Below are positions 5,720 to 36,161 of a stretch of 64,000 bases of DNA, piece after piece (the first letter of the stretch is position 1; every line of letters begins with the position of its first letter). The position numbers and the translations under genes are program-made. This stretch comes from Firmicutes bacterium UBA5559 (GTDB lineage Bacteria > Bacillota > Clostridia > Peptostreptococcales > Anaerovoracaceae): contig DIMT01000001.1 in the NCBI GenBank assembly GCA_002425705.1, positions 46,221 to 110,220 on the forward strand. The letters run 5' to 3'. The notes beneath the pieces are model-generated. The model saw nothing but the letters and a program-made list of their open reading frames with translations. It was not told the origin of the DNA and ran no database searches.

Positions 5720-6355
5720 ATGAACAAAGTCACTTTTAAACCGGGAACCATGCTGAATCCCCTGCCGGTGGTCATGGTCAGCTGCGGGAGCATGGAAGCC
5801 CCCAACATCGTTACCATTGCCTGGACCGGCATCATCAATTCCGAACCGCCCATTACCTATGTATCCATCCGGAAATCCCGATATTCCCATGAGCTTATTA
5901 CCCAGTCCGGAGAATTCGTCATCAACCTGACCACGGAAAAGCTGGCGGAAACCACCGATTTCTGCGGTGTTCGTTCCGGCAGGGAGCTTAATAAATTTCA
6001 GGAACGGGGGCTGACTCCCATTCCTTCGGATCACATCGGTGCTCCCATGATCCAGGAATCTCCGGTAAACCTGGAATGCCGGGTAATGGAAGTGAAAAGC
6101 TTCCCTTCCCACGACATGTTCATAGCAGAAATTCTGGCGGTTCATGCCGATGAAAGCCTGCTCAGCGATACGGGTAAGCTCCGGTTGGATAAAGCCGGAC
6201 TCCTGTGCTACAACCATGGGGAATATTACGGAATCCATCAGCGTCCTCTTGGCCGTTTCGGGTATTCCATCATGAAGCCCAAGACCAAGAAAAAACTGGA
6301 AGGGCAGAAGCGGTCGGCTATGCGGTCGAAAAAAGGAAAAACAGGAGGTCGATAA
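5720..6355 (+). CDS. Flavin reductase-like (FMN-binding split barrel) protein
   Basis: NPLPVVMVSCG...NIVTIAWTG and FVINL match the flavin_reduct pattern. The C-terminal tail is Lys-rich. Confidence 0.7.
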   Translation: MNKVTFKPGTMLNPLPVVMVSCGSMEAPNIVTIAWTGIINSEPPITYVSIRKSRYSHELITQSGEFVINLTTEKLAETTDFCGVRSGRELNKFQERGLTPIPSDHIGAPMIQESPVNLECRVMEVKSFPSHDMFIAEILAVHADESLLSDTGKLRLDKAGLLCYNHGEYYGIHQRPLGRFGYSIMKPKTKKKLEGQKRSAMRSKKGKTGGR

Positions 6356-6362
6356 CCTCCTG
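6329..6362 (-). terminator. Rho-independent terminator for the minus-strand small CxxC gene
   Basis: Stem CAGGAGGT/ACCTCCTG (6342..6362). On the minus strand it is followed by TTTTTCCTTTTTT. It lies inside the 3' end of the flavin reductase CDS. Confidence 0.6.
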
Positions 6363-6431
6363 CCTTCTTATATCTGAGTGCTGATTTCATGGAAACGATG
6401 GTCTGCCCGGGGATCGATGGGCGGAACCTGG

Positions 6432-6569
6432 TCACTTCAAATGGGTAACGGTTGGCTGGATGGGCTGCTGAAGCCGCCTTATATAAGTGAGACAGTCTTC
6501 ACAAACAGCACCTCCTTTGAAGGGGATGATCTGATAGGCATTGCTGCAAAGAGAGCAGGATGATTTCAT
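6432..6569 (-). CDS. Small zinc-ribbon-like protein (45 aa, CxxC-x14-CxxC), Gin/CsfB-like pattern
   Basis: Not in the ORF track because it is under 60 aa. My own translation is MKSSCSLCSNAYQIIPFKGGAVCEDCLTYIRRLQQPIQPTVTHLK. SD AAGGAAGGTG sits about 5 nt before the ATG, and a terminator with a T-run lies downstream. Confidence 0.55.
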   Translation of the reverse strand: MKSSCSLCSNAYQIIPFKGGAVCEDCLTYIRRLQQPIQPTVTHLK

Positions 6570-9432: not shown

Positions 9433-10317
9433 ATGATAAAAAGTATGACCGGCTTCGGAAGAGGCGAATTCAGCGACGGCAAAAGGACCATCATAGCAGA
9501 GATCCGGGCCGTCAACCACCGTTACAGCGACATCACCGTCAAGATGCCCCGGCGCTATTCCTTTGCCGAGGATCGTATTAAAAATGCGGTCAAAGAAGTA
9601 GTGAGAAGGGGCAAGCTGGAAGTATCCATCATCGTGGAGAATATCACGGAGGATGATACCAACATCCGGCTCAACACCATGGTAGCCCGTCAGTATTTCG
9701 ACAATCTGAATCTTTTAAAGGAAGAATTCGGCCTGACCGGCGAAGTGACCCTGCCTTTCCTGGCTGGTCTCCCTGACGTTATGAAGGCGGTCCCCGATGT
9801 GGAAGATGAAGAAGAAATCACGAAATGCCTGGAAACATCGGTTCAGTCGGCAGCCCGGCATCTGGATGAAATGAGGATTGCCGAGGGAGAAAAACTGGCG
9901 GAGGATCTTCTGGCCAGAGGAAAGCATATCCGGGAGCTGGTGGACCGGATTGAGGATCGAGCTCCCCGGGTCGTGGAGGTTTACACGGAAAAGCTCAAAG
10001 CCCGTATCAAAGAACTGATCGGCAGCAGCGCTACTGTTCCGGAAGACCGAATCCTTTTGGAAGCAGCCATCTTTGCTGATAAATCCAATATCACCGAGGA
10101 ACTGGTCCGGCTGGACAGCCATATCCAGCAGCTCCATTCCATCATATCCAACAGCAGCCAGCCTGACGGTAAAAAACTGGATTTTCTGGTCCAGGAGATG
10201 AACCGGGAAGCCAACACTATTGGTTCCAAGGCCAATGACATGGAGATAACCAACGTAATGCTGGAAATCAAAAGCGAAATTGAAAAGATTCGGGAACAGG
10301 TTCAGAACATCGAATAA
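9433..10317 (+). CDS. yicC: YicC-family stress-induced protein
   Basis: ATG 9433 follows AGGAG. MIKSMTGFGRGE and the C-terminal FLVQEMNREANTIGSKAND motif are present. Confidence 0.9.
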   Translation: MIKSMTGFGRGEFSDGKRTIIAEIRAVNHRYSDITVKMPRRYSFAEDRIKNAVKEVVRRGKLEVSIIVENITEDDTNIRLNTMVARQYFDNLNLLKEEFGLTGEVTLPFLAGLPDVMKAVPDVEDEEEITKCLETSVQSAARHLDEMRIAEGEKLAEDLLARGKHIRELVDRIEDRAPRVVEVYTEKLKARIKELIGSSATVPEDRILLEAAIFADKSNITEELVRLDSHIQQLHSIISNSSQPDGKKLDFLVQEMNREANTIGSKANDMEITNVMLEIKSEIEKIREQVQNIE

Positions 10318-24762: not shown

Positions 24763-24791
24763 TTGACATTTTTTGCTTTATTATCTACAAT
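24763..24791 (+). promoter_or_regulatory. SigA-type promoter of the SARP-like regulator gene
   Basis: TTGACA (24763-68), 17 nt spacer, TACAAT (24786-91). Confidence 0.6.
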
Positions 24792-24813
24792 GGGAGCAAG
24801 GGAGGGAATGCCC

Positions 24814-26049
24814 ATGCAAGAGGAATACAAAATCACCTTTTTTAAAGAATTTTCCCTGAGCCAGGGAGGCCATCTGATTTTAGAAGGCCCACTGAAAAGC
24901 AGTAAGGTTTTTCAACTGCTTCAGTATTTTCTTGCCCATCGTTCCAAATCCTTTACGAAAGAGCACCTGATCGAGCTCCTTTACGGGGATGAATTTGTGG
25001 ATAATCCCACCAATGCGCTGAAAATCATCGTTCACCGGCTCCGGAAGCAGATCCTGTCCCTGGGACTGCCGGAAATGGAATACATCGTCAACTACAATGG
25101 AAAATACGGATGGAATCCGGAAATCCCCTGTCAGGTCGACATTGAGATCTTTGAACATACCATGAAGCGGGCCCTCCATCCCAATGCACCGGAGGAGGAG
25201 TCCCTTAAGCTGATGCTGGAGGCCATCCACCTGTATCAGGGGCCTTTCCTGGGCAACAGCCTGACGGAAAGCTGGGTGATTCCCATGCGGGTCCGGTACG
25301 AGGAAGCCTATAAACACTTGATAGGTCGAGCCTGCCAGCTGATTCGGAAGAAGGAGGACTTCATCCTGCTTCACTATATCGCGTCCCATGGACTGGAAAT
25401 CTATCCGATGGATGAGGATTTCTCCCGGGAAAAGATATTTGCTTTGCATCAATTGGGCAAGACCAAGGAAGCCATCGGGGAGTATAACCGGATCGTGGAC
25501 CTGATTTTTAACGAATACGGCGTCAGCCCGTCGGATGAACTGCAGTCCCTTTACGATAAGGTAGCGGCAACGACCCAGAAAAGCGCCATCAATGTGGATG
25601 AAGTTAAAAATTTCCTGGAAGAAGGGGAAGATGATGATGGGGCTTATTTCACCAATTATCAAAACTTTGCAGACAGCTATCGTTTTTTAGTTAGAGGGCT
25701 GGAGCGAAGCGGTCTTTCCGCATTCCTGATGCTCTGCACCATGGTCAACAAACAAGGAAAGCTGCTGGATGAGGAACTCCAGCTGGCCCACGCTTCCGAT
25801 GCGCTGAAGACAGCCTCCAAGGCTTCTTTAAGAAGAGGAGACCTTTATACCCGGTACAGCCCTTCCCAGTATCTCTATCTGCTGATCGGCATCAACCAGG
25901 AAAACTGCAGCATCGTTTTTGACCGTATCGAAAAGCATTTCCGGAAGGAGTTCCGGGGAAATCAGGTCAACCTGAAATACAAGGTGGTTTCTGCAGCCGA
26001 CATTAAAAAGCTCTTTGGCGACAAAAGGGGCCAACAGGATGCAAAATAA
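24814..26049 (+). CDS. SARP-like transcriptional regulator: OmpR-type winged helix + BTAD + degenerate GGDEF-like C-terminal domain
   Basis: ATG 24814 lies 7 nt after AGGGAGGGA. The N-terminus (FLAHRSKSFTKEHLIELLYGDEFVDNPTNALKIIVHRLRKQI) is a Trans_reg_C-like wHTH. The middle (DIEIFEH...LYQGPFL...ALHQLGKTKEAIGEYNRIVDLIFNEYGVSPSDELQSLYDKV) matches BTAD. The C-terminal part (about 145 aa) follows the GGDEF fold pattern, with RRGD-LYTRY-SPSQY where RxxD-x5-GGDEF would be. Confidence 0.7.
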   Translation: MQEEYKITFFKEFSLSQGGHLILEGPLKSSKVFQLLQYFLAHRSKSFTKEHLIELLYGDEFVDNPTNALKIIVHRLRKQILSLGLPEMEYIVNYNGKYGWNPEIPCQVDIEIFEHTMKRALHPNAPEEESLKLMLEAIHLYQGPFLGNSLTESWVIPMRVRYEEAYKHLIGRACQLIRKKEDFILLHYIASHGLEIYPMDEDFSREKIFALHQLGKTKEAIGEYNRIVDLIFNEYGVSPSDELQSLYDKVAATTQKSAINVDEVKNFLEEGEDDDGAYFTNYQNFADSYRFLVRGLERSGLSAFLMLCTMVNKQGKLLDEELQLAHASDALKTASKASLRRGDLYTRYSPSQYLYLLIGINQENCSIVFDRIEKHFRKEFRGNQVNLKYKVVSAADIKKLFGDKRGQQDAK

Positions 26050-26083
26050 ACCGGATTCTGATTCAATATGACACAATTTCGAC

Positions 26084-26111
26084 AAAACGCCTCGAAAAGG
26101 GGCGTTTTTTT
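26084..26111 (+). terminator. Rho-independent terminator after the regulator gene
   Basis: AAAACGCCTC-GAAAA-GGGGCGTTTT stem followed by a T-run. Confidence 0.85.
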
Positions 26112-26129
26112 ATTGCGCAAAACCCGCAG

Positions 26130-26186
26130 GTTTCAACATGCTACTGGTTTTTTGAAACTGGCAGTGAAACTAAAACGGCATATGAT
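26130..26186 (+). promoter_or_regulatory. Candidate activator-dependent promoter of adhesin A (TGAAACT direct repeats plus -10)
   Basis: TGAAACT (26153-59), N5, TGAAACT (26165-71), N9, TATGAT (26181-86). An inverted copy GGTTTCA lies at 26130-36. The same geometry recurs at 29392..29425. Confidence 0.55.
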
Positions 26187-26265
26187 AGTTAAACAAAAGG
26201 GATGAGTTTCTCCCAGTCACGAAACAGAGACATACTTGATTTTATGAGAAGGAAGGAGAGGTATT

Positions 26266-28554
26266 ATGAGTAGTAAAAGAAAAAGCTGGATGAGGGTGGT
26301 GGCCTTCACCATAATGCTCACCCTGGTCTTGATGACCGGAGCCACTGGGCTGGTAGTAGCCGAAGAGGGAGGCTTCGAAGGACCGCCTCTGGAGGAGAAT
26401 GGAATTATCCAGTCGTCGGGGTCGGAAGATCCATCCGGTGATGACGGTTCTGGTAAAATGGATGAGGGATTGCCTGAGGGAGAAGGGCAAACAAGAACCA
26501 TGAGTTTTTTTAAACCGGAAAAACCACCCAAGCTAGAGATTAAATTAGAAAAGTGGGTTAATCCGGATAAGGTTTTCTTTCAAGATGACATGGTGACTTT
26601 TTTCTTCAAGGTTACAAATAAGAGTGAAAGAAGCCTTAGGAATGTGGTTCTTGTGGATGAAGATTTAGGCCTTGTAATTACGATTGGTGAATTAAGTAAA
26701 GAGAGGTGGCATGGATCGGTCTACACAACAGAGGTGGCTGTTAAGCTGGATCCTGACAAATGGGATGGGAATAAGTACATCAATGAGGCGTCAGTATCCG
26801 GCACAGCAAGGGTAGCGGACAATGATATTATTGTATCAGATTCAGCCTGGGCAAAAGTAGAATTGAAACCGATCATTGGATTCGCCAAAGAAGCGGATCG
26901 TGAAACTGTTTTCTTTAAGGACTCCACGGTAACCTATACCTTTACGGTAACAAATATGAGTAATAAGCCAATTGCGGATGTGATGATTATTGATCCTGCT
27001 ATTGGCCTTGAAATTGATGCAGGCTCATTGGGAATTCATGGAAAGGGCAAAACCTTCACTACAAAAGTAGCGGTTGATCTAAGTGAGAATTTATGGGACG
27101 GCAATTCATTTAACAATACTGCCACGGTTCAGGGAACCGTTCCCTGGGGCGAAGGGACCAGATCAGTCAGTGCCGATGCTTCGTATACCGTGAAGTATCA
27201 GGCTCCTTTGACCTTAGAAAAGACGGTTGATAAAAGCACAGTTAATTTCAAGGACGAAAAGGTAACTTATACATTCAAGGTTAAAAATAACCTTTGGTGG
27301 GATCTCCAAAATGTAAAGGTTTATGATGAAACCATCGATGCAATTCTGGATTTCGGCAAAGTACGAAAGGGACAATGGGAAACTAGGACATTTGCATTTG
27401 ATTTGACAAATGCAGAATGGGATGGGGATCAATTCATCAACACTGCAAGAGTGGAAGCTCCTTTTATGAGAGGAGATACACCGGTAACTCTTTCGGCAGT
27501 TGATACGGCTGCTGTAACTTACGTACCACCCATGACCCTGGAAAAATCAGTAGATCCTGGAACTGTATACTCACAAGATGGAATTGTAAACTATACCTTC
27601 AAAGTGTGGAATAATCTTTCGGACAATACGATTAAGAATGTAGTTCTGACGGATACTCTCTTGGATTTAACGGTGAATGCCGGGGACATCAAAGCAAAGA
27701 GTAAATGGAATAAAGGCTATTATACCACCACTGTTGCTATTGACTTGTCTTTAATCCCTGAAGATTCCTGGGATGGCAATCAATTGATTAATGAAGCTAC
27801 AGCCATGGGCTGTTACGAAAAAATCAAATGGGCTCCGAGAGGAAACGAGGGAGACTTCCAAACGATGAAACATTGGTCTCCTCCTACGGAATGCATCACG
27901 TTGACAGCAGTGGACACGGCTACCCTGATCTATGATCCGACCACATTGACGATTAAAAAAGATGTTCCCAACGTAACCGATTCTGCAGCAGCCTTTGATG
28001 TTCTGATTTCGTGGGAAGAAGAATGGGTCTATGATGAGGATTCAGGAGACAATGAAATCCCCCAATACCGTACCATGGTGATGAATACCACCACGAAGTC
28101 TATCCAGGGTGTAATTTCGGAATTGGAGCCCTTTGTCATGGATGCGGTTCCTGGAGTTTTGTACACAGTGGCAGAAACTACAAAAGCAGGCTATACCACA
28201 TCAGAAACCTCTTTGCAGATTACCCTGGAGCCAGGTGAAGATGGAGTGATCACCTTTGTGAACACCAAGGATGTCATAGAGGAAGAAAGCTCTGGCGGTG
28301 GCGGCACCAATCAAGGTGGCAGCAGTGGTGGCGGTGGAGATACGGATACCAATACCATAGCTACGGTTCCTGACGGTCAGGTACCCTTAGCCCAGGATCC
28401 TGTTACTGTTGAAACATTAGCCGATTTACCCATTCCGCTAGCTGATGTTCCTCAAACCGGAAACAATGCATTGCTGAATCTCTGGTGGATTTTGCTAGCT
28501 TTGTCCGGATTTGGAATCCTGGTTGTCGTAAATAGGAAACCGGAAAAAATTTAA
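26266..28554 (+). CDS. Sortase-anchored surface protein A (four DUF11/CARDB-like repeats, a Cna-B/prealbumin-like domain, and a VPQTG sorting signal)
   Basis: Signal peptide MSSKRKSWMRVVAFTIMLTLVLMTGATGLVVA. Four modules of about 105 aa each end in WDG(N/D)xxxNxAxV. A Gly-rich linker follows. The C-terminus is PIPLADVPQTG, then a hydrophobic span, then RKPEK. The gene is AT-rich compared with its flanks. Confidence 0.85.
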   Translation: MSSKRKSWMRVVAFTIMLTLVLMTGATGLVVAEEGGFEGPPLEENGIIQSSGSEDPSGDDGSGKMDEGLPEGEGQTRTMSFFKPEKPPKLEIKLEKWVNPDKVFFQDDMVTFFFKVTNKSERSLRNVVLVDEDLGLVITIGELSKERWHGSVYTTEVAVKLDPDKWDGNKYINEASVSGTARVADNDIIVSDSAWAKVELKPIIGFAKEADRETVFFKDSTVTYTFTVTNMSNKPIADVMIIDPAIGLEIDAGSLGIHGKGKTFTTKVAVDLSENLWDGNSFNNTATVQGTVPWGEGTRSVSADASYTVKYQAPLTLEKTVDKSTVNFKDEKVTYTFKVKNNLWWDLQNVKVYDETIDAILDFGKVRKGQWETRTFAFDLTNAEWDGDQFINTARVEAPFMRGDTPVTLSAVDTAAVTYVPPMTLEKSVDPGTVYSQDGIVNYTFKVWNNLSDNTIKNVVLTDTLLDLTVNAGDIKAKSKWNKGYYTTTVAIDLSLIPEDSWDGNQLINEATAMGCYEKIKWAPRGNEGDFQTMKHWSPPTECITLTAVDTATLIYDPTTLTIKKDVPNVTDSAAAFDVLISWEEEWVYDEDSGDNEIPQYRTMVMNTTTKSIQGVISELEPFVMDAVPGVLYTVAETTKAGYTTSETSLQITLEPGEDGVITFVNTKDVIEEESSGGGGTNQGGSSGGGGDTDTNTIATVPDGQVPLAQDPVTVETLADLPIPLADVPQTGNNALLNLWWILLALSGFGILVVVNRKPEKI

Positions 28555-28562
28555 AGACTAAG

Positions 28563-28584
28563 GGGGCTGCCATCCGGCGGCCCC
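28563..28584 (+). promoter_or_regulatory. GC-rich intercistronic stem-loop between adhesin A and its sortase
   Basis: GGGGCTGCC-ATCC-GGCGGCCCC, 9 bp with one G-U pair. The T-tail is weak (TGTTTC), so it looks like an attenuator or stability element rather than a full terminator. Confidence 0.5.
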
Positions 28585-28606
28585 TGTTTCAAAGGAGGTG
28601 GTTACG

Positions 28607-29356
28607 ATGAAGAGGATCTGGATGATCCGCCTGGGAATTGTGTTGATTCTTCTAGCCTGTATTCTCTTGCTTTATTCCTTGTTTGGACCGGGCAACAACG
28701 GGAAGGAAGAGTTCCAGACATCTTTGCAGGAAGAGGAGCTGCCAATATCGGCCGATGGGGAGCAGCCCCTCTACCCGGCTCCTTCTGTAACCATTGACTT
28801 TGATGGGTTACTGGCTATCAACGATGAGACAACCAGTTGGATCTGGATTCCCGATTCGCCTATCACTTACCCGGTGATGCAGGGGCTGGACAATCAGAAG
28901 TACCTGACCCGCTCCTATAAGGGGACTTATGACCGGAATGGCAGTGTATTCATGGATTACCGATGTCAGCCGGATTACAGCAGCAGCCACACCATTCTCT
29001 TTGGCCATAATATGCTGACGGAAGATATTTTCGGCACACTGGAGCGCTATAAGGACCTTGAATACCTCAACAGACATTCTCTGATCTATATCCTGAAACC
29101 GGAGGAATACCAAGTGTACGAAGTCTTCTCCATTCACGGGACGGATGCTACCGGAGAAACCTACCGGGTGAATTTTGAAACGCCAGACCACTTTCGGCAG
29201 TACCTGGAAGAAATGAAGGAGCTATCCATCCATCCTTTGGGGCCTGATCCGGAATCGAAAGACCAGATACTGACCCTTTCTACTTGTACTTCTCACGGAA
29301 ATAAGAACGATCGTTTCGTTGTCCAGGCCGTTTTGCAGGAAACTGTAAAACTTTAA
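28607..29356 (+). CDS. srtB: Class B sortase
   Basis: ATG 28607 lies 8 nt after AGGAGG. It has an N-terminal TM anchor, TILFGHNM (catalytic His), LTLSTCTSHG (catalytic Cys in TLSTC), and DRFVVQA (Arg). Confidence 0.85.
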   Translation: MKRIWMIRLGIVLILLACILLLYSLFGPGNNGKEEFQTSLQEEELPISADGEQPLYPAPSVTIDFDGLLAINDETTSWIWIPDSPITYPVMQGLDNQKYLTRSYKGTYDRNGSVFMDYRCQPDYSSSHTILFGHNMLTEDIFGTLERYKDLEYLNRHSLIYILKPEEYQVYEVFSIHGTDATGETYRVNFETPDHFRQYLEEMKELSIHPLGPDPESKDQILTLSTCTSHGNKNDRFVVQAVLQETVKL

Positions 29357-29391
29357 AATAGAGTTCAAAATGTTTCATAATTCTGAGATGC

Positions 29392-29425
29392 TGAAACCTG
29401 TATTGAAACCTGAAACCGTTATAGT
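29392..29425 (+). promoter_or_regulatory. Candidate activator-dependent promoter of the small-protein/adhesin B operon (TGAAACC repeats plus -10)
   Basis: TGAAACC (29392-98), N5, TGAAACC (29404-10), N9 containing a third TGAAACC (29411-17), then TATAGT (29420-25). Confidence 0.55.
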
Positions 29426-29487
29426 AAAAATAAGAAGAAAACAAGTTGTTTGAAATGAACGGAAATTCAACGAAGGAGGTGGTAAGT

Positions 29488-29991
29488 TTGCAGCCAAGCA
29501 ATATCCGGATGTTTTCCCGGAATATTATTTGTAACTGCGTCAACCAATGTGGACCTAATGGCATACAAGGAGAGCTGCACCACCTTTACTCCGAAGAACC
29601 GATCCGATACCGGGACGCATTTGAAATGCTGATCCAGATGGATAAGTTCTATGATAACCTGAATTTTCCGATGGCTTCCACCGAAACCCGATCTTTTATC
29701 AAAAGGAAGCCCAGTCAAAATAGGAAAGAGATGATAAAAATGGAGCAGGATGAAAAACTATTAAAGGTTAAGGGCAGCAAGGGCACATTCCTGATACAGG
29801 TACAATACCGACAGAACGCCACCTGGCAAGGCAAGGTGGTCTGGGCAGAAGAAAACAAGACACAATATTTCAGAAGCGCACTGGAACTAATGAAACTGAT
29901 TGATGGAGCTCTGAACAAGGGCAACGAGGAAGCGACAATAGAATTCGAAGAAAGTGATAATCCAAAAGATAAGAAATACGCTACCAGCTAA
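29488..29991 (+). CDS. Hypothetical cytoplasmic protein with internal duplication, unknown function
   Basis: The ORF track gives 29446..29991. The best SD is GAAGGAGGTG, which favours TTG 29488, with ATG 29509 as an alternative. There is no signal peptide. Two halves share the motif [YF]R[DS]A[FL]E[ML][LM]xx[MI]D (EPIRYRDAFEMLIQMD versus TQYFRSALELMKLID). Confidence 0.5.
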   Translation: MQPSNIRMFSRNIICNCVNQCGPNGIQGELHHLYSEEPIRYRDAFEMLIQMDKFYDNLNFPMASTETRSFIKRKPSQNRKEMIKMEQDEKLLKVKGSKGTFLIQVQYRQNATWQGKVVWAEENKTQYFRSALELMKLIDGALNKGNEEATIEFEESDNPKDKKYATS

Positions 29992-30031
29992 AAGGGAGGT
30001 TATCAAGAGCGTATGGGAAAGGAGAATGGAG

Positions 30032-31831
30032 ATGAACATTCAGACAAAGAGGTGGGCAAGGCCCCTGGCGCTTTTCATAGCGCTGACAATGGTGATGATG
30101 TACTCCTTTGGGGGAGTGGTGTTTGCATCAATTAATGATGTTAGAGTTCATTATCACGGACCAAGTGATGATGGAGTTGTAGTTGTAATTACGACTGTAT
30201 CATCAGAAGGTGCTATTGATCAAACCTTTACAGCAGAAGCTAAGAGACATAAAAAGAGTAGTCATTACGATGGAAAATTTTCTCCAAGCATTGACCAAGT
30301 TTTATCGAATGGCGATAAACTCATTGATGAAGGTGTAGTTACAAGAGCATACACAACAATAAATGGTATTTACACAGAATTAACAGTTGATCATAGTTCA
30401 GCTATCGGAAATAACTCGGCAAATATTAAGGTTGGACCACCACCAACTGCAAAAGTTTATAACCTAATGATAACCAAGACGGTAGACAAGCCAGTAGTTC
30501 CCCTTGATGGCGCTGTTAAGTTTACTATTACTGTTACAAATATCGGGAATACATTAGTGAGCGGCGTAGTTGTAACAGACGAAATTCCTGCAGGCTTATT
30601 GATAACGGCCACTTATTCAGCAGTTGGAACATTTGCAGGCGATGTCTGGACAATCGGTGATTTAGCGAGTGGTCAACAAGTAACATTAGAGATTGATGCC
30701 ATTACTACTGATGTAGATGAGATCACCAATACTGCCACTGTAAGTTTTGATGGTGATGATGTTGATGAGGATGATAACACAGCAAGTGCGACAGTAGATG
30801 TTTTAGTACCATATGACTTATCTCTTACAAAGTCAGTAAATCCTGGATCTGTAGGTATAAGTGAAGAAGCTCTTTTCACTATTAAAGTAGAGAACAAGGG
30901 ATTCTATGAAGCAACTAATGTTGTTGTCAAGGATGTATGGCCAGATGGGCTTGAATTTATCGGTGCAACATCCAGCGATGCTATACAGTTCAATGCTGAG
31001 GATATGACATGGACCCTTGGAAGTTTAGCTCCTGGAGCAACTAAAACAATTACTTTATCAGGTATTTCAGCAGTAGCCGATGATTATACGAATACTGCAT
31101 CTGTTACCTTTAGCGGAATCGACCAGAATCCAAATGATAACTCTGATACAGCAACGCTTAAAGTGCTTCTGGAAAGAGACCTTGGAATCACAAAGGTTGC
31201 AGCACCTACCAATATTCTGCTTAATGAAAGCACAGTATTTACAGTGACTATAACAAATAATGGTACTGAAACTATTAATAATATTTTCGTTGAAGATGTT
31301 ATGGAAGCTGGATTAAGTATTTCGGCAATCGGCTCAGATGATTTTAAAGATGGAATATGGGATGTCGGAACTCTGGAATCCGGAGAAAGCAAGATTTTAA
31401 CAATAGCCGCAATTGGAACAACAGTTGGTTCCCTTCAGAATCAGGTTGAGATTGTGACTCTGGGTGATGGCAATAACGAAGTAATTGAATATGTTCCATT
31501 TGAAGATGATAACCAGTCTAACAACTCTGAAAAAGCTACCGTAACAGTCTCCGCAGGAGGCGGTGGAGGTGGCGGCGGCGGTGGAACCGGTGGAGGCGGT
31601 GGTGGTGGAACCACTATCCAGGAAACTACTCCTCCATTAACCAATATCCCCGACGGAGAAACTCCGTTAGTAGAAGCCCCGGAAGTAATGCTTGAAGAGC
31701 AGCCCATTCCGCTGGCAGACGTTCCCCAGACTGGTGACAACACCAACATCTGGTTGCTGCTGGCCCTGATGATGGGATCCGGAGCAGGAATCGTCCTCCT
31801 GGGAAGGCGAAAAGAAACAGTTGAAAAGTAA
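30032..31831 (+). CDS. Sortase-anchored surface protein B (three DUF11 repeats, a poly-Gly linker, and a VPQTG sorting signal)
   Basis: ATG 30032 lies 7 nt after GGAG. Signal peptide MNIQTKRWARPLALFIALTMVMMYSFGGVVFA. The canonical DUF11 repeat pattern is present (L.ITKTVDKP...F.ITVTN.G...V.V.D..P.GL......G...WT.G.L..G....L......NTA.V). The linker is G10-T-G7. The C-terminus is PIPLADVPQTG, then a hydrophobic span, then RRKE. Confidence 0.85.
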   Translation: MNIQTKRWARPLALFIALTMVMMYSFGGVVFASINDVRVHYHGPSDDGVVVVITTVSSEGAIDQTFTAEAKRHKKSSHYDGKFSPSIDQVLSNGDKLIDEGVVTRAYTTINGIYTELTVDHSSAIGNNSANIKVGPPPTAKVYNLMITKTVDKPVVPLDGAVKFTITVTNIGNTLVSGVVVTDEIPAGLLITATYSAVGTFAGDVWTIGDLASGQQVTLEIDAITTDVDEITNTATVSFDGDDVDEDDNTASATVDVLVPYDLSLTKSVNPGSVGISEEALFTIKVENKGFYEATNVVVKDVWPDGLEFIGATSSDAIQFNAEDMTWTLGSLAPGATKTITLSGISAVADDYTNTASVTFSGIDQNPNDNSDTATLKVLLERDLGITKVAAPTNILLNESTVFTVTITNNGTETINNIFVEDVMEAGLSISAIGSDDFKDGIWDVGTLESGESKILTIAAIGTTVGSLQNQVEIVTLGDGNNEVIEYVPFEDDNQSNNSEKATVTVSAGGGGGGGGGGTGGGGGGGTTIQETTPPLTNIPDGETPLVEAPEVMLEEQPIPLADVPQTGDNTNIWLLLALMMGSGAGIVLLGRRKETVEK

Positions 31832-31858
31832 GTACGGTAAAGTATAATTAAAGATGTG

Positions 31859-31890
31859 TAAGGGTTACCTTCGGGTAACCCTTATTTATT
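31859..31890 (+). terminator. Rho-independent terminator/attenuator between adhesin B and sortase 2
   Basis: 11-bp stem TAAGGGTTACC/GGTAACCCTTA with a TTCG loop, followed by TTTATT. Confidence 0.75.
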
Positions 31891-31962
31891 AGAAATTGTG
31901 TCATTTGGCCTACATTGCCAAAAGACCGCCAACTGACAGACCTGCTTACAGAGGTGGTATTT

Positions 31963-32727
31963 GTGAAAAAAATTATTTTAATCGTATTAATTTGCGTATT
32001 TATCGGCTCCGGCCTGATGCTGGCGGGAACGCTGCTGGAGTACAAACAGGGGCAGGATCTTTATGAGGCTGCTGCGGAGCAGGTTATTCGTCCGGAGAAG
32101 CCTGAGGCCGAAGAGGAGCCGGATGGCCCGGCTGCTCCAGTTCCCCCTGCCATTAATTTTGAGTTGTTATCGTCCATCAGCCCCGATTCGGTGGGTTGGA
32201 TCTGGATACCCGATTCGGAGATCAGTTACCCCTTGGTGCAGGGCCGGGACAATCAGTTTTATTTGACCCGGACCTATGATGGGGGGCACAACAAGCTGGG
32301 AAGCATCTTTCTGGATTACCGGATTCCGGGGGACTTTAGCGGCAGAAACACCATCATCTACGGGCACAACATGAAAAGCGATGCCATGTTCGGCACCCTG
32401 GAAAAATTCCGGGATCAGACTTTTACCGATGCCCGGCCCCAGTTCTATATCCTCCGGGAGGAGGGGGTCTATCGATATCAGATTTTTTCCGCTTATGTCA
32501 CCGATGCCTTGAGCGATACCTACACCTACCAGTTTGGGAATGATGCCGCTTATGGCAAGTATCTGGAAAAGATTACAAATCTGTCAGACATTACACCGCC
32601 TCAATCCGATATCACACCGCCGAAAGGCCCGGACATTGGCACCCCGATCGTCACCCTGTCCACCTGTACCAGTACCGGAAGGCAGCTGGATCGGTTCGTG
32701 GTTCACGGTTTTCTGATTTCGGAGTAG
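31963..32727 (+). CDS. srtB: Class B sortase (second copy)
   Basis: GTG 31963 follows GAGGTGG. It has a TM anchor, TIIYGHNM, VTLSTCTSTG, and DRFVVHG. It is a paralog of the gene at 28607..29356. Confidence 0.85.
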   Translation: MKKIILIVLICVFIGSGLMLAGTLLEYKQGQDLYEAAAEQVIRPEKPEAEEEPDGPAAPVPPAINFELLSSISPDSVGWIWIPDSEISYPLVQGRDNQFYLTRTYDGGHNKLGSIFLDYRIPGDFSGRNTIIYGHNMKSDAMFGTLEKFRDQTFTDARPQFYILREEGVYRYQIFSAYVTDALSDTYTYQFGNDAAYGKYLEKITNLSDITPPQSDITPPKGPDIGTPIVTLSTCTSTGRQLDRFVVHGFLISE

Positions 32728-32790
32728 CAAAGATTTTAATTTTGTGCTATGATAAAGGACAAAAGTGAAAAAATCATACAGGAGGAAAGC

Positions 32791-34569: not shown

Positions 34570-34812
34570 TAGCAAAAGCGATGACAGGGTAAAGTAAGAT
34601 GATCCGGCGGATTACAGAGAATCGGCAGTGCTGAGAGCCGACAGAAGCAGACATCCCAAGTTCCCCCTTGAGCTGACCGGCTGAACCGATAGTAGGCCGT
34701 TCCGGGTTCTCCCGTCACAGAGATAAGGATTCATGGAGTCCTGAGTGGCCGTAAGGCAATAAGAGTGGTACCGCGGGCTTCCCGTCTCTTAGGAGATTGG
34801 AAGCCTTTTTTT
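34570..34812 (+). promoter_or_regulatory. T-box riboswitch leader (probable Phe/UUC specifier) with terminator
   Basis: K-turn AGCGATGA (34577-84) pairs with TGAGCT (34669-74). AGTA is at 34593-96 and the AG bulge AGAGA at 34616-20. The distal loop is AGTGCTGAGA. The T-box sequence AGAGTGGTACCGCG is at 34762-75. The terminator is GGCTTCC...GGAAGCC plus T7 (34776-34812). Confidence 0.85.
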
Positions 34813-34862: not shown

Positions 34863-36161
34863 ATGATTTGGAATGAGCCGAAAGAATGTATGAGCAGGGA
34901 TGAGCGGACGGCAGAGCAGAGCCAGCGTCTGAAAGAGACAGTGAACCGGGTCTATCATAATGTGGCCTTTTATCGGAAAAAGATGCAGGAACTGGGCCTG
35001 GAACCGGGAGACATCAAAGGCATCGAAGACATCCATAAGCTGCCCTTTACTACCAAGAATGATCTGCGGGAAAACTACCCCTTCGGATTGTTTGCTGTGC
35101 CCAAAAGCGAAATCGTCCGGGTCCACGCCTCCTCCGGCACCACCGGAAAGCCCATCGTGGTAGGATACACCCGAAAAGACATCGACCTGTTCTCTGAAGT
35201 AGTAGCCAGAGCCTATTGCTGCGCTGGTGCTACCAAAGACGACATCGTCCAGATCGCCTATGGCTATGGCCTATTCACCGGTGGCCTGGGGATGCATTAC
35301 GGTGCAGAAAAGCTGGGGGCAGCAGTGGTTCCCATCTCTGGAGGCAATACGGAAAAGCAGCTGGCCCTGATGCAGGATTTCGGCAGTACGATTCTGGCCT
35401 GCACCCCCTCCTATGCGGCCTTCCTTTCAGAAGCCATCGAAGAAGCGGGAATCGATAAAAACCAGCTTCAGCTGAAAGCCGGTATCTTCGGGGCAGAACC
35501 CTGGAGCAACGAGATGAGGGCCAAGATCGAAGAGGGCTTAGGCATCACCGCCTATGACATCTACGGACTCAGTGAGATCATCGGACCGGGCGTCTCCTGC
35601 AGCTGTTATGTTCAGGAGGGACTCCACGTGGCGGAGGATCATTTCTATCCAGAGATCCTGGATCCGGAAACCCTGAAGGCAGTCACCCCGGGCACCACCG
35701 GCGAACTGGTCTTCACCACCATTACCAAGGAAGGCATGCCCCTGCTCCGGTACCGGACCCGGGATCTGGCCAGCCTCAATTACGATGCCTGCGCTTGCGG
35801 GCGGACCAATGTGCGGATGTCCAAGATTCAGGGACGTTCCGACGATATGCTCATTATTCGGGGGGTCAATGTATTCCCCTCCCAGGTGGAAAGCGCTCTC
35901 CTGGAAATCGAAGAAGCCAAACCCCATTACATGCTGATCGTAGACCGGGTGGGAACCATGGACACCCTGGAGATTCAGGTTGAAATCGATGATAGATATT
36001 TCAGCGATGAAATGGTAGAATTAAATAAAGTGCGGCAGAAAATCAAACACAAGGTGGAAAGTATTCTGGGAATCAGCGTCAACATCAACCTGGTGGAGCA
36101 CAAAACCATTGCAAGAAGCGAAGGAAAAGCCAAGAGAGTCATCGATAGGCGAAAGATATAG
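34863..36161 (+). CDS. paaK: Phenylacetate-CoA ligase family, copy 2 (T-box controlled)
   Basis: 432 aa with HASSGTTGKPIVVGYT, YGLSEIIGPGV, RYRTRD, and GRSDDMLIIRGVNVFPSQVE. By eye it is about half identical to copy 1. Confidence 0.85.
   Translation: MIWNEPKECMSRDERTAEQSQRLKETVNRVYHNVAFYRKKMQELGLEPGDIKGIEDIHKLPFTTKNDLRENYPFGLFAVPKSEIVRVHASSGTTGKPIVVGYTRKDIDLFSEVVARAYCCAGATKDDIVQIAYGYGLFTGGLGMHYGAEKLGAAVVPISGGNTEKQLALMQDFGSTILACTPSYAAFLSEAIEEAGIDKNQLQLKAGIFGAEPWSNEMRAKIEEGLGITAYDIYGLSEIIGPGVSCSCYVQEGLHVAEDHFYPEILDPETLKAVTPGTTGELVFTTITKEGMPLLRYRTRDLASLNYDACACGRTNVRMSKIQGRSDDMLIIRGVNVFPSQVESALLEIEEAKPHYMLIVDRVGTMDTLEIQVEIDDRYFSDEMVELNKVRQKIKHKVESILGISVNINLVEHKTIARSEGKAKRVIDRRKI

Follow-up and report, generated by a model that had tools for sequence, protein, structure and literature searches.

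A SARP-family regulator of Clostridia with a degenerate GGDEF domain and a conserved inhibitory site: a candidate c-di-GMP-responsive activator of surface-protein genes

Several bacterial proteins with degenerate GGDEF domains, among them PelD, SgmT, YdaK of Bacillus subtilis and PssE of Listeria, serve as receptors of cyclic di-GMP (c-di-GMP) through the inhibitory site (I-site) of the domain. Such receptors, which would bind c-di-GMP without making it, have proteolysis adaptors, polysaccharide synthases or a kinase as their targets, and we know of none in which the GGDEF domain is fused directly to a DNA-binding domain. Here we describe a regulator gene on a 64,000-nucleotide stretch of a gut-type Clostridia genome, that of Firmicutes bacterium UBA5559 (contig DIMT01000001.1, positions 46,221 to 110,220; hereafter the window), the product of which joins a DNA-binding module of the SARP family to a degenerate GGDEF-like domain. 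The gene occupies window positions 24814..26049 and encodes 411 residues, arranged as a SARP module, a flexible linker and the GGDEF-like domain; it lies on the + strand, as do all window features described below. PopA of Caulobacter and the degenerate-GGDEF proteins of its type, which bind c-di-GMP at RxxD (PMC12564702), share with the regulator a dead active-site motif, an RxxD five residues upstream of it and the downstream Arg. Compared with that class, the regulator's domain is shorter and its motif (SPxQF/Y) has diverged further.

The I-site of PleD comprises R359, D362 and R390 together with R313 of a neighbouring GGDEF domain (PMC7288161). Dimers of c-di-GMP cross-link GGDEF domains through this site, and the secondary I-site Arg occupies one of two alternative helix positions (PMC7288161, PMC8041772). 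The regulator has equivalents of R359, D362 and R390, and the helix that precedes its strand β1 ends with an Arg, which by analogy suggests the same cross-link of two domains by a c-di-GMP dimer. PleD, WspR and DgcR, however, are active enzymes in which the site shuts catalysis off; the regulator has no catalysis to inhibit, and the cross-link would therefore be its output signal. On the DNA-binding side, the large SARPs AfsR (SARP, NOD and TPR domains) and EmbR (SARP and FHA domains) share with the regulator a winged helix, a BTAD domain and a C-terminal regulatory domain. SARP domains are monomeric and dimerise on DNA only, where they bind direct repeats with an 11-bp period, the 3' repeat lying 8 bp from the −10 element; in large SARPs, extra C-terminal domains modulate the SARP domain (PMC10936776). 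In AfsR the modulating domain is a nucleotide-binding one, and the regulator resembles a receptor of the PopA class joined to the large-SARP design. It differs from AfsR and EmbR in that its sensor is GGDEF-like, not NOD/TPR or FHA, and in that its hosts are Clostridia, not actinomycetes.

By the account in PMC4151990, the transcription factor BldD is dimerised by c-di-GMP. BldD, VpsT, FleQ, MrkH, Clp and LtmA all couple c-di-GMP to transcription, as the regulator would, but they do so through REC, AAA+, PilZ-like, CRP or bespoke motifs. To our knowledge, no characterised c-di-GMP-responsive transcription factor senses through a GGDEF I-site. The PucR- and CdaR-type regulators are transcription factors with a diverged GGDEF-like sensor (Pfam GGDEF_2) and an HTH_30 DNA-binding domain; we are aware of no report of I-site conservation in them, and GGDEF_2 was absent among the best 25 of the 61 Pfam families matched by 48 homologs of the regulator. 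In Clostridia, as far as we know, c-di-GMP output is understood almost entirely through riboswitches, protein effectors on transcription being essentially unknown.

The original prediction, made from the DNA sequence, held that positions 25606-26049 (translated as ...KASLRRGDLYTRYSPSQYLYLLIGINQENC...) encode a degenerate GGDEF-like domain that retains an RxxD I-site at canonical spacing. Judged by profile homology and predicted fold, the C-terminal domain is a member of the GGDEF superfamily; its boundaries fall at residues 275-405 (~130 residues; 25636..26028). A search of the regulator sequence against the PDB with phmmer returned a marginal GGDEF match only (4urg, E 0.059), and family profiles were therefore needed. 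A profile built from 29 C-terminal domains found 16 GGDEF chains in the PDB (E 6.2e-7 to 0.025) and, over the same span of scores, chains of no other family; in its alignment to the Thermotoga maritima diguanylate cyclase 4urg, RrgD falls over RRSD, spsqF over GGDEF and dRi over ERI. Taken individually, 35 of the 48 full-length homologs matched PF00990 (E<=1; best 2.7e-6), and GGDEF was the sole Pfam family to recur among them apart from SARP and TPR-like families.

Structure prediction led to the same family. An AlphaFold2 model of the isolated domain (predicted local distance difference test score, pLDDT, 85; predicted TM-score, pTM, 0.77) was compared with the PDB by Foldseek, and the best 50 matches were all GGDEF domains, including those of PleD, WspR, DgcR and FimX (E 7e-6 to 1e-3; TMq 0.50-0.63). 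The TM-scores are moderate because the domain is shortened. Its predicted secondary structure, in keeping with a palm-like α/β fold that bears the signature motif on a β-hairpin, comprises a helix at residues 282-299, strand β1 at 303-311 and the two strands of a hairpin at 344-349 and 352-358. The full-length model, built on an alignment of 48 homologs (pLDDT 85), likewise has a compact C-terminal α/β domain. The comparisons proposed in the original prediction, with PF00990 and with the structures of PleD and WspR, thus both support GGDEF (the C-terminal profile found GGDEF chains only at E<0.03), and neither the profiles nor the structure prediction pointed to an unrelated fold. That RRGD is a chance motif in such a fold would agree with the marginal phmmer score and with the regulator's having no Pfam GGDEF match of its own, but the profile, the homologs and the top 50 fold matches all indicate GGDEF; we consider this explanation hardly credible and rejected it.

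Conservation was assessed over ~199 domain instances, made up of 51 homologs from a word-indexed search and the 150 top-ranking representatives from an exhaustive search (<50% identical among themselves). RRGD occupies residues 340-343 (25831..25842), aligned with RRSD of 4urg and with RAID (R359-D362) of PleD, and SPSQY occupies residues 349-353 (25858..25872) on the β-hairpin, the position that GG(D/E)EF would take; both stand exactly where they had been predicted. Residues 340-353 as a whole read RRGD-LYTRY-SPSQY (nt 25831-25872), so that RxxD lies exactly five residues before the former GGDEF, in a register that agrees with both 4urg and PleD. GG[DE]EF was found in none of the 199 relatives, in which the consensus is S-P-x-Q-[FY]. 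The metal-binding D-x-D-x-FK segment has also been lost, as predicted: LMLCTMVNKQG (residues 305-315) aligns with ...VLFVDLAGFKAI... of 4urg, and T309 on strand β1 (25738..25740) takes the position of the catalytic metal-binding Asp in ...LFVDL... of that enzyme. Across the family this position is Thr in 125 sequences and Ser in 47 (T/S in 172 of 197), and Asp in only 2. The loop that bears FK...N...D in enzymes is variable, and in one sublineage (P0019, P0020, P0021, P0025 and P0026, within P0019-P0026) 12 residues of the former substrate loop, which joins β1 to the next helix (window residues 316-327), have been deleted while the I-site residues are all unchanged.

The best-conserved polar positions of the domain are R340 (199 of 199), D343 (199 of 199), R371 (195 of 196) and R298 (196 of 197), followed by R294 (190 of 195); R298, R340, D343 and R371 are jointly kept in 191 of 193 sequences. 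R371 (25924..25926), the third primary I-site residue, is equivalent to R390 of PleD: it lies 28 residues past the Asp, as in PleD, and takes part in the dRi/ERI alignment. R294 and R298 (25693..25707) are candidate secondary I-site arginines, on the grounds of their conservation and of their place in the last two turns of the predicted helix before β1. The PleD sequence used for comparison is self-consistent in its numbering at R313, D327, N335, D344, R359, D362, G368, E370 and R390. Aligned to the family profile, it pairs R359 with R340, D362 with D343, R366-Y367 with R347-Y348, GGEEF with SPSQY and R390 with R371; the alignment extends over 352-394 only, which leaves R313 outside it.

RRGD is more than a chance match, because it stands in the register of a supported GGDEF alignment (E 6e-7) and because R340 and D343 are invariant in relatives that are often <50% identical to one another. 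The possibility of a fortuitous tetrapeptide, raised in the original prediction, is refuted by that invariance, and the predicted pattern of dead active site and intact I-site turned out to extend further than was noticed there, to two near-invariant arginines beyond RxxD, R371 and the candidate secondary-site R298. A frozen I-site beside a drifting active site is also what has been reported of PopA and other receptors with a degenerate GGDEF domain (PMC12564702). On these alignments the regulator is not a diguanylate cyclase, because the GG(D/E)EF motif and the metal-binding Asp with its substrate segment were both looked for and neither was found. It could be argued that the domain is still an enzyme, a diguanylate cyclase or other nucleotidyl cyclase with an unusual motif, given that some cyclases altered at the first motif position (e.g. 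AGDEF) are reported to be active (PMC3974145). Here, however, neither acidic residue of the motif survives (S-P-x-Q-F/Y; GG[DE]EF in 0 of 199), the β1 Asp has become Thr or Ser, the substrate loop varies and has in part been deleted, and the domain lacks its C-terminal part; the chance of remaining cyclase activity appears negligible to us, and this reading was rejected.

We are therefore highly confident in reading the domain as a catalytically dead GGDEF homolog that has selectively conserved its I-site. To judge from the alignments, all features of the active site have been lost and the c-di-GMP pocket has been kept, probably complete (RxxD, the downstream Arg and, as the candidate secondary-site residue, the Arg of the pre-β1 helix), and from this, by analogy with PleD and the PopA class, we infer that the regulator binds c-di-GMP. 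Three cysteines of the domain are also strongly conserved: C280 (172 of 191; nt 25651-25653), C308 (152 of 197; nt 25735-25737), which adjoins the former metal-binding position, and C365 (176 of 198; nt 25906-25908). A redox or metal role for them is conceivable.

Residues 1-250 of the regulator form the SARP module, and the predicted fusion of the GGDEF-like domain to a DNA-binding module of this type is borne out by Pfam and by fold. An OmpR-type winged-helix DNA-binding domain at residues 29-82 (24898..25059; Pfam Trans_reg_C, E 2.2e-9) is followed by a BTAD helical domain at residues 108-250 (25135..25563; Pfam BTAD, E 1.7e-14), the latter present in 48 of 48 homologs. The linker at residues 256-274 (25579..25635) is predicted to be disordered (pLDDT <50 at residues 256-263 and 266-274 of the full-length model). 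The best PDB matches of the full-length model were the SARP domain of AfsR in transcription complexes (8k60, 8hvr) and EmbR (E 4e-11 to 7e-10), with GGDEF domains next; none of its PDB matches unites a SARP and a GGDEF part. By domain content and modelled fold, the regulator is a member of the SARP family, and the same layout recurs in 51 full-length homologs, each of ~400 residues. The reading frame is open from 24763 to 26049, with the likeliest start at ATG 24814, 7 nt after a GGGAGGG. A predicted sigma-A-type promoter, TTGACA-17-TACAAT, lies at 24763..24791 and agrees with the consensus at 11 of 12 positions, better than any other site in the region scanned, and a hairpin resembling an intrinsic terminator, with a 10-pair stem and then a T run, lies 3' of the gene at 26084..26108.

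The regulator gene lies after a conserved dxr-rseP-ispG-polC block and opens a lower-GC stretch between polC and the gene for an AMP-binding enzyme (GC content 0.42-0.46 in ~26050-32730, compared with ~0.52). This stretch, which looks like an acquired island, encodes two surface proteins of the DUF11/DUF7507 type, both with VPQTG, as well as two sortases, and contains a small gene of no known family. Surface protein 1 (26266..28554; Pfam DUF7507 and DUF11) has 762 residues and a C-terminal VPQTG sorting signal, its tail reading ...VPQTGNNALLNLWWILLALSGFGILVVVNRK; sortase 1 follows at 28598..29356 (Pfam Sortase, E 3e-14). The small gene, a conserved neighbour of the regulator, runs from TTG 29488, after AGGAGG, to 29991 and encodes ~167 residues. 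Surface protein 2 (30032..31831, start approximate) has DUF11 repeats (Pfam DUF11, 5e-66; Gram_pos_anchor) and an LPXTG-type anchor, VPQTG, and sortase 2 lies at 31915..32727 (Pfam Sortase, E 9e-13).

Two putative SARP boxes were located in this stretch. The first, before the gene for surface protein 1 (26153..26186), reads TGAAACT ggcag TGAAACT (heptamers 26153-26171), then 9 nt, then TATGAT; the second, before the small gene (29392..29425), reads TGAAACC tgtat TGAAACC TGAAACC gt TATAGT (heptamers 29392-29417). Pairs of TGAAACY heptamers with a 12-nt period were matched 3 times in the 64-kb window, compared with 0.05 expected, at these two places only. With their 12-nt period and 9-nt distance from the −10 hexamer, the repeats match the layout of SARP promoters, in which direct repeats near −10 replace the −35 element (PMC10936776), and they are candidate sites of SARP binding. 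They depart from known SARP promoters in their period, 12 nt in the window's clade (11 in L010 and L011), and in the putative targets, adhesin and sortase genes and not antibiotic clusters. In the closest syntenic relative (L005, 59% identity) the regulator likewise follows polC, and the locus shares the three-heptamer box and the small gene with the window and encodes a DUF11 protein and a sortase. In other lineages the same box layout was found with different repeat words (GCGAAA, GTAAC(G/A)C, TGTAGCC, TGTAACA and CGTGATT), followed by a −10-like hexamer; the words are lineage-specific. Of 29 distinct intergenic regions that precede the small partner gene, 15 have an exact 6-mer repeat at an 11- or 12-nt period; in shuffled sequences the number averaged 2.6 and never exceeded 8. 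Sortases or sorting-signal proteins are encoded in a minority of the homologous loci.

Riboswitches in homologous clusters provide an independent link to c-di-GMP, although a circumstantial one with regard to c-di-GMP binding by the regulator. Aptamers of the c-di-GMP-I class, at the Rfam gathering level, were found inside the clusters of five of the six closest genome relatives (L006, L008, L009, L010 and L011); the sixth, L007, spans no more than 2 kb. They lie at 1689-1774 and 6485-6574 in L008, at 9966-10051 and 15090-15178 in L009, at 2319-2414 in L010 and at 3849-3932 in L011. The aptamers of L006, at 6319-6402 and 6462-6545, are a tandem of the c-di-GMP-I-GGC variant (RF03167) before the gene for a 223-residue protein. 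Aptamers occur directly after the regulator or small gene and directly before genes for anchored surface proteins; L008, which has the gene order of the window, carries riboswitches at the places where the window has SARP boxes. These elements also bear on whether the pocket might bind another nucleotide, be it a different cyclic dinucleotide, pGpG, GTP or (p)ppGpp. Ligand specificity is not readable from four residues, a structure of PleD with c-di-GMP and pppGpp exists (9g86), and the aptamers adjoining the L006 genes are of the GGC variant; yet the aptamers that flank four of the five relatives are standard c-di-GMP-I, and the pocket of RxxD and Arg is documented as a c-di-GMP site (PMC7288161, PMC8041772, PMC12564702). 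We regard a different nucleotide ligand as improbable.

The small gene is the most conserved neighbour of the regulator: 46 of 78 loci carry a homolog of it on the same strand, no more than 1.5 kb downstream of the regulator homolog. Its protein has no relative in Pfam, NCBIfam or the PDB. So tight a linkage could mean that the dead GGDEF domain has no ligand at all and is a module for oligomerisation or for docking, for example of this partner, the Arg and Asp residues serving an interface or the stability of the fold. GGDEF domains can be regulated by partners, and SiaD-SiaC (7e6g) is among the fold matches. However, the small gene is not directly downstream in 32 of the 78 loci and is nowhere in the examined locus in 25, and the regulators of all of these keep the residues in question; moreover, its four near-invariant charged residues coincide with the c-di-GMP inhibitory site of PleD, R298 by its position before β1. 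Ligand-free docking is, in our judgement, unlikely.

Examples of the small protein (~150 residues) are encoded at 29488-29991 in the window, 9225-9710 in L020, 9222-9677 in L018 and 9373-9906 in L005. Numbered from an ATG 33 nt past the TTG, its invariant residues are P54, R61, G89, R101-Q102, W106-Q107-G108, F121 and S123, and its C-terminal motif reads TFxVxVQYRQNATWQGxVxW...FRSALELLKLIDSAL. In addition, many of the loci have a gene for a 'mini' paralog, 60-80 residues long and made up solely of the small protein's C-terminal WQG/FRSALEL module (9882-10133 in L020, 9653-9910 in L018, 6190-6423 in L008, 14575-14934 in L009, 9317-9502 in L027, and others). In L008 and L009 the gene for the mini paralog lies just upstream of a c-di-GMP-I riboswitch.

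On the residues and promoter repeats described above, the regulator probably activates the adjacent surface-adhesin genes in response to c-di-GMP. The mechanism that we slightly favour is that of a one-component activator whose dead GGDEF domain senses c-di-GMP by means of the retained I-site. When c-di-GMP rises, an intercalated c-di-GMP dimer would settle on R340, D343 and R371 of one protomer and on R298 (or R294) of a second, cross-linking the two as the GGDEF domains of PleD and DgcR are cross-linked. Through the flexible linker, the cross-link would place a side-by-side pair of SARP modules on two TGAAACY direct repeats, in the stead of a −35 element; the pair would recruit RNA polymerase to the promoters of the adhesin/sortase genes and of the small gene, and the adhesin island would be transcribed. 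The direction of the response may be activation or release.

Several observations weigh against this account, at one level or another. In the window no riboswitch other than a T-box was found, no gene for a GGDEF or EAL protein is present and no open reading frame contains GG[DE]EF. The riboswitches belong to the closest clade only (5 of 38 loci by Rfam, 5 of 85 by a pattern search); because none was detected in the window or in an Rfam scan of 21 more distant loci, the riboswitch link is limited to that clade. As to the domain, Pfam, when given the regulator alone, recognised nothing but the SARP part and left residues 262-411 without a match even at E<=10, and NCBIfam likewise returned nothing beyond the SARP part. 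Compared with a canonical GGDEF domain, about a third is missing at the C-terminal end, and TM-scores reach just 0.5-0.63: the regulator ends 40 residues past R371, the final 12 of them predicted to be disordered, compared with 64 residues past R390 in the PleD sequence used here. The proposed equivalence of R298 (or R294) to R313 of PleD and R163 of DgcR follows from secondary-structure position only. Finally, the GGDEF cross-link is 2-fold symmetric and SARP binding is head-to-tail, and reconciling the two needs a flexible linker.

The regulator belongs to a large family. A word-indexed search with the C-terminal domain alone found 3 proteins only, and full-length and exhaustive searches were needed; among clusters at 50% identity, an exhaustive profile search then recovered 2372 representatives with E<=1e-3 and 1172 with E<=1e-10. 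The best 150 representatives are mostly ~400 residues long with the domain at ~260-400, and the shorter ones look like fragments; two are outsize, P0115 (582 residues) and P0194 (614 residues, two matched stretches), and may carry extra or duplicated domains. In species-representative genomes, 240 loci, mostly of Clostridia, encode a relative. Among the best 80 of these are loci from Roseburia inulinivorans, Blautia producta, Blautia celeris, Lacrimispora, Fusicatenibacter, Diplocloster, Christensenella, Oscillospiraceae and others, and none of the 80 encodes a protein more than 46% identical to the query. Homologs are annotated in their sources as 'SARP family transcriptional activator' or 'hypothetical protein' only, and a literature search found no description of an architecture combining SARP and GGDEF.

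A broader proposal, which we advance tentatively and rate a little short of even, is that these proteins form a large undescribed class of one-component c-di-GMP-dependent activators in Clostridia. Cross-linked dead GGDEF domains would assemble a SARP pair on direct-repeat promoters and, together with riboswitches and the small partner, would gate sortase-anchored adhesins in gut commensals. Were this so, an abundant family of ~400-residue proteins would be a c-di-GMP-responsive activator class in Clostridia, controlling cell-wall-anchored adhesins relevant to gut colonisation. The GGDEF inhibitory site would also have found a new use, with product-mediated cross-linking as a signal output and not as feedback inhibition.

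Genes resembling those of type IV pili or type II secretion occur near some regulator homologs, as with PilM_2 and T2SSF in L001 (1-1602) and L003 (15374-17185); unannotated open reading frames of pilin-like appearance lie near the homolog in L010 (6381-9649). Because such genes are found near several homologs, the regulon may reach pili in some species. Elsewhere in the window, the T-box leader (34572-34792; 106.5 bits) lies upstream of an open reading frame at 34863-36161.

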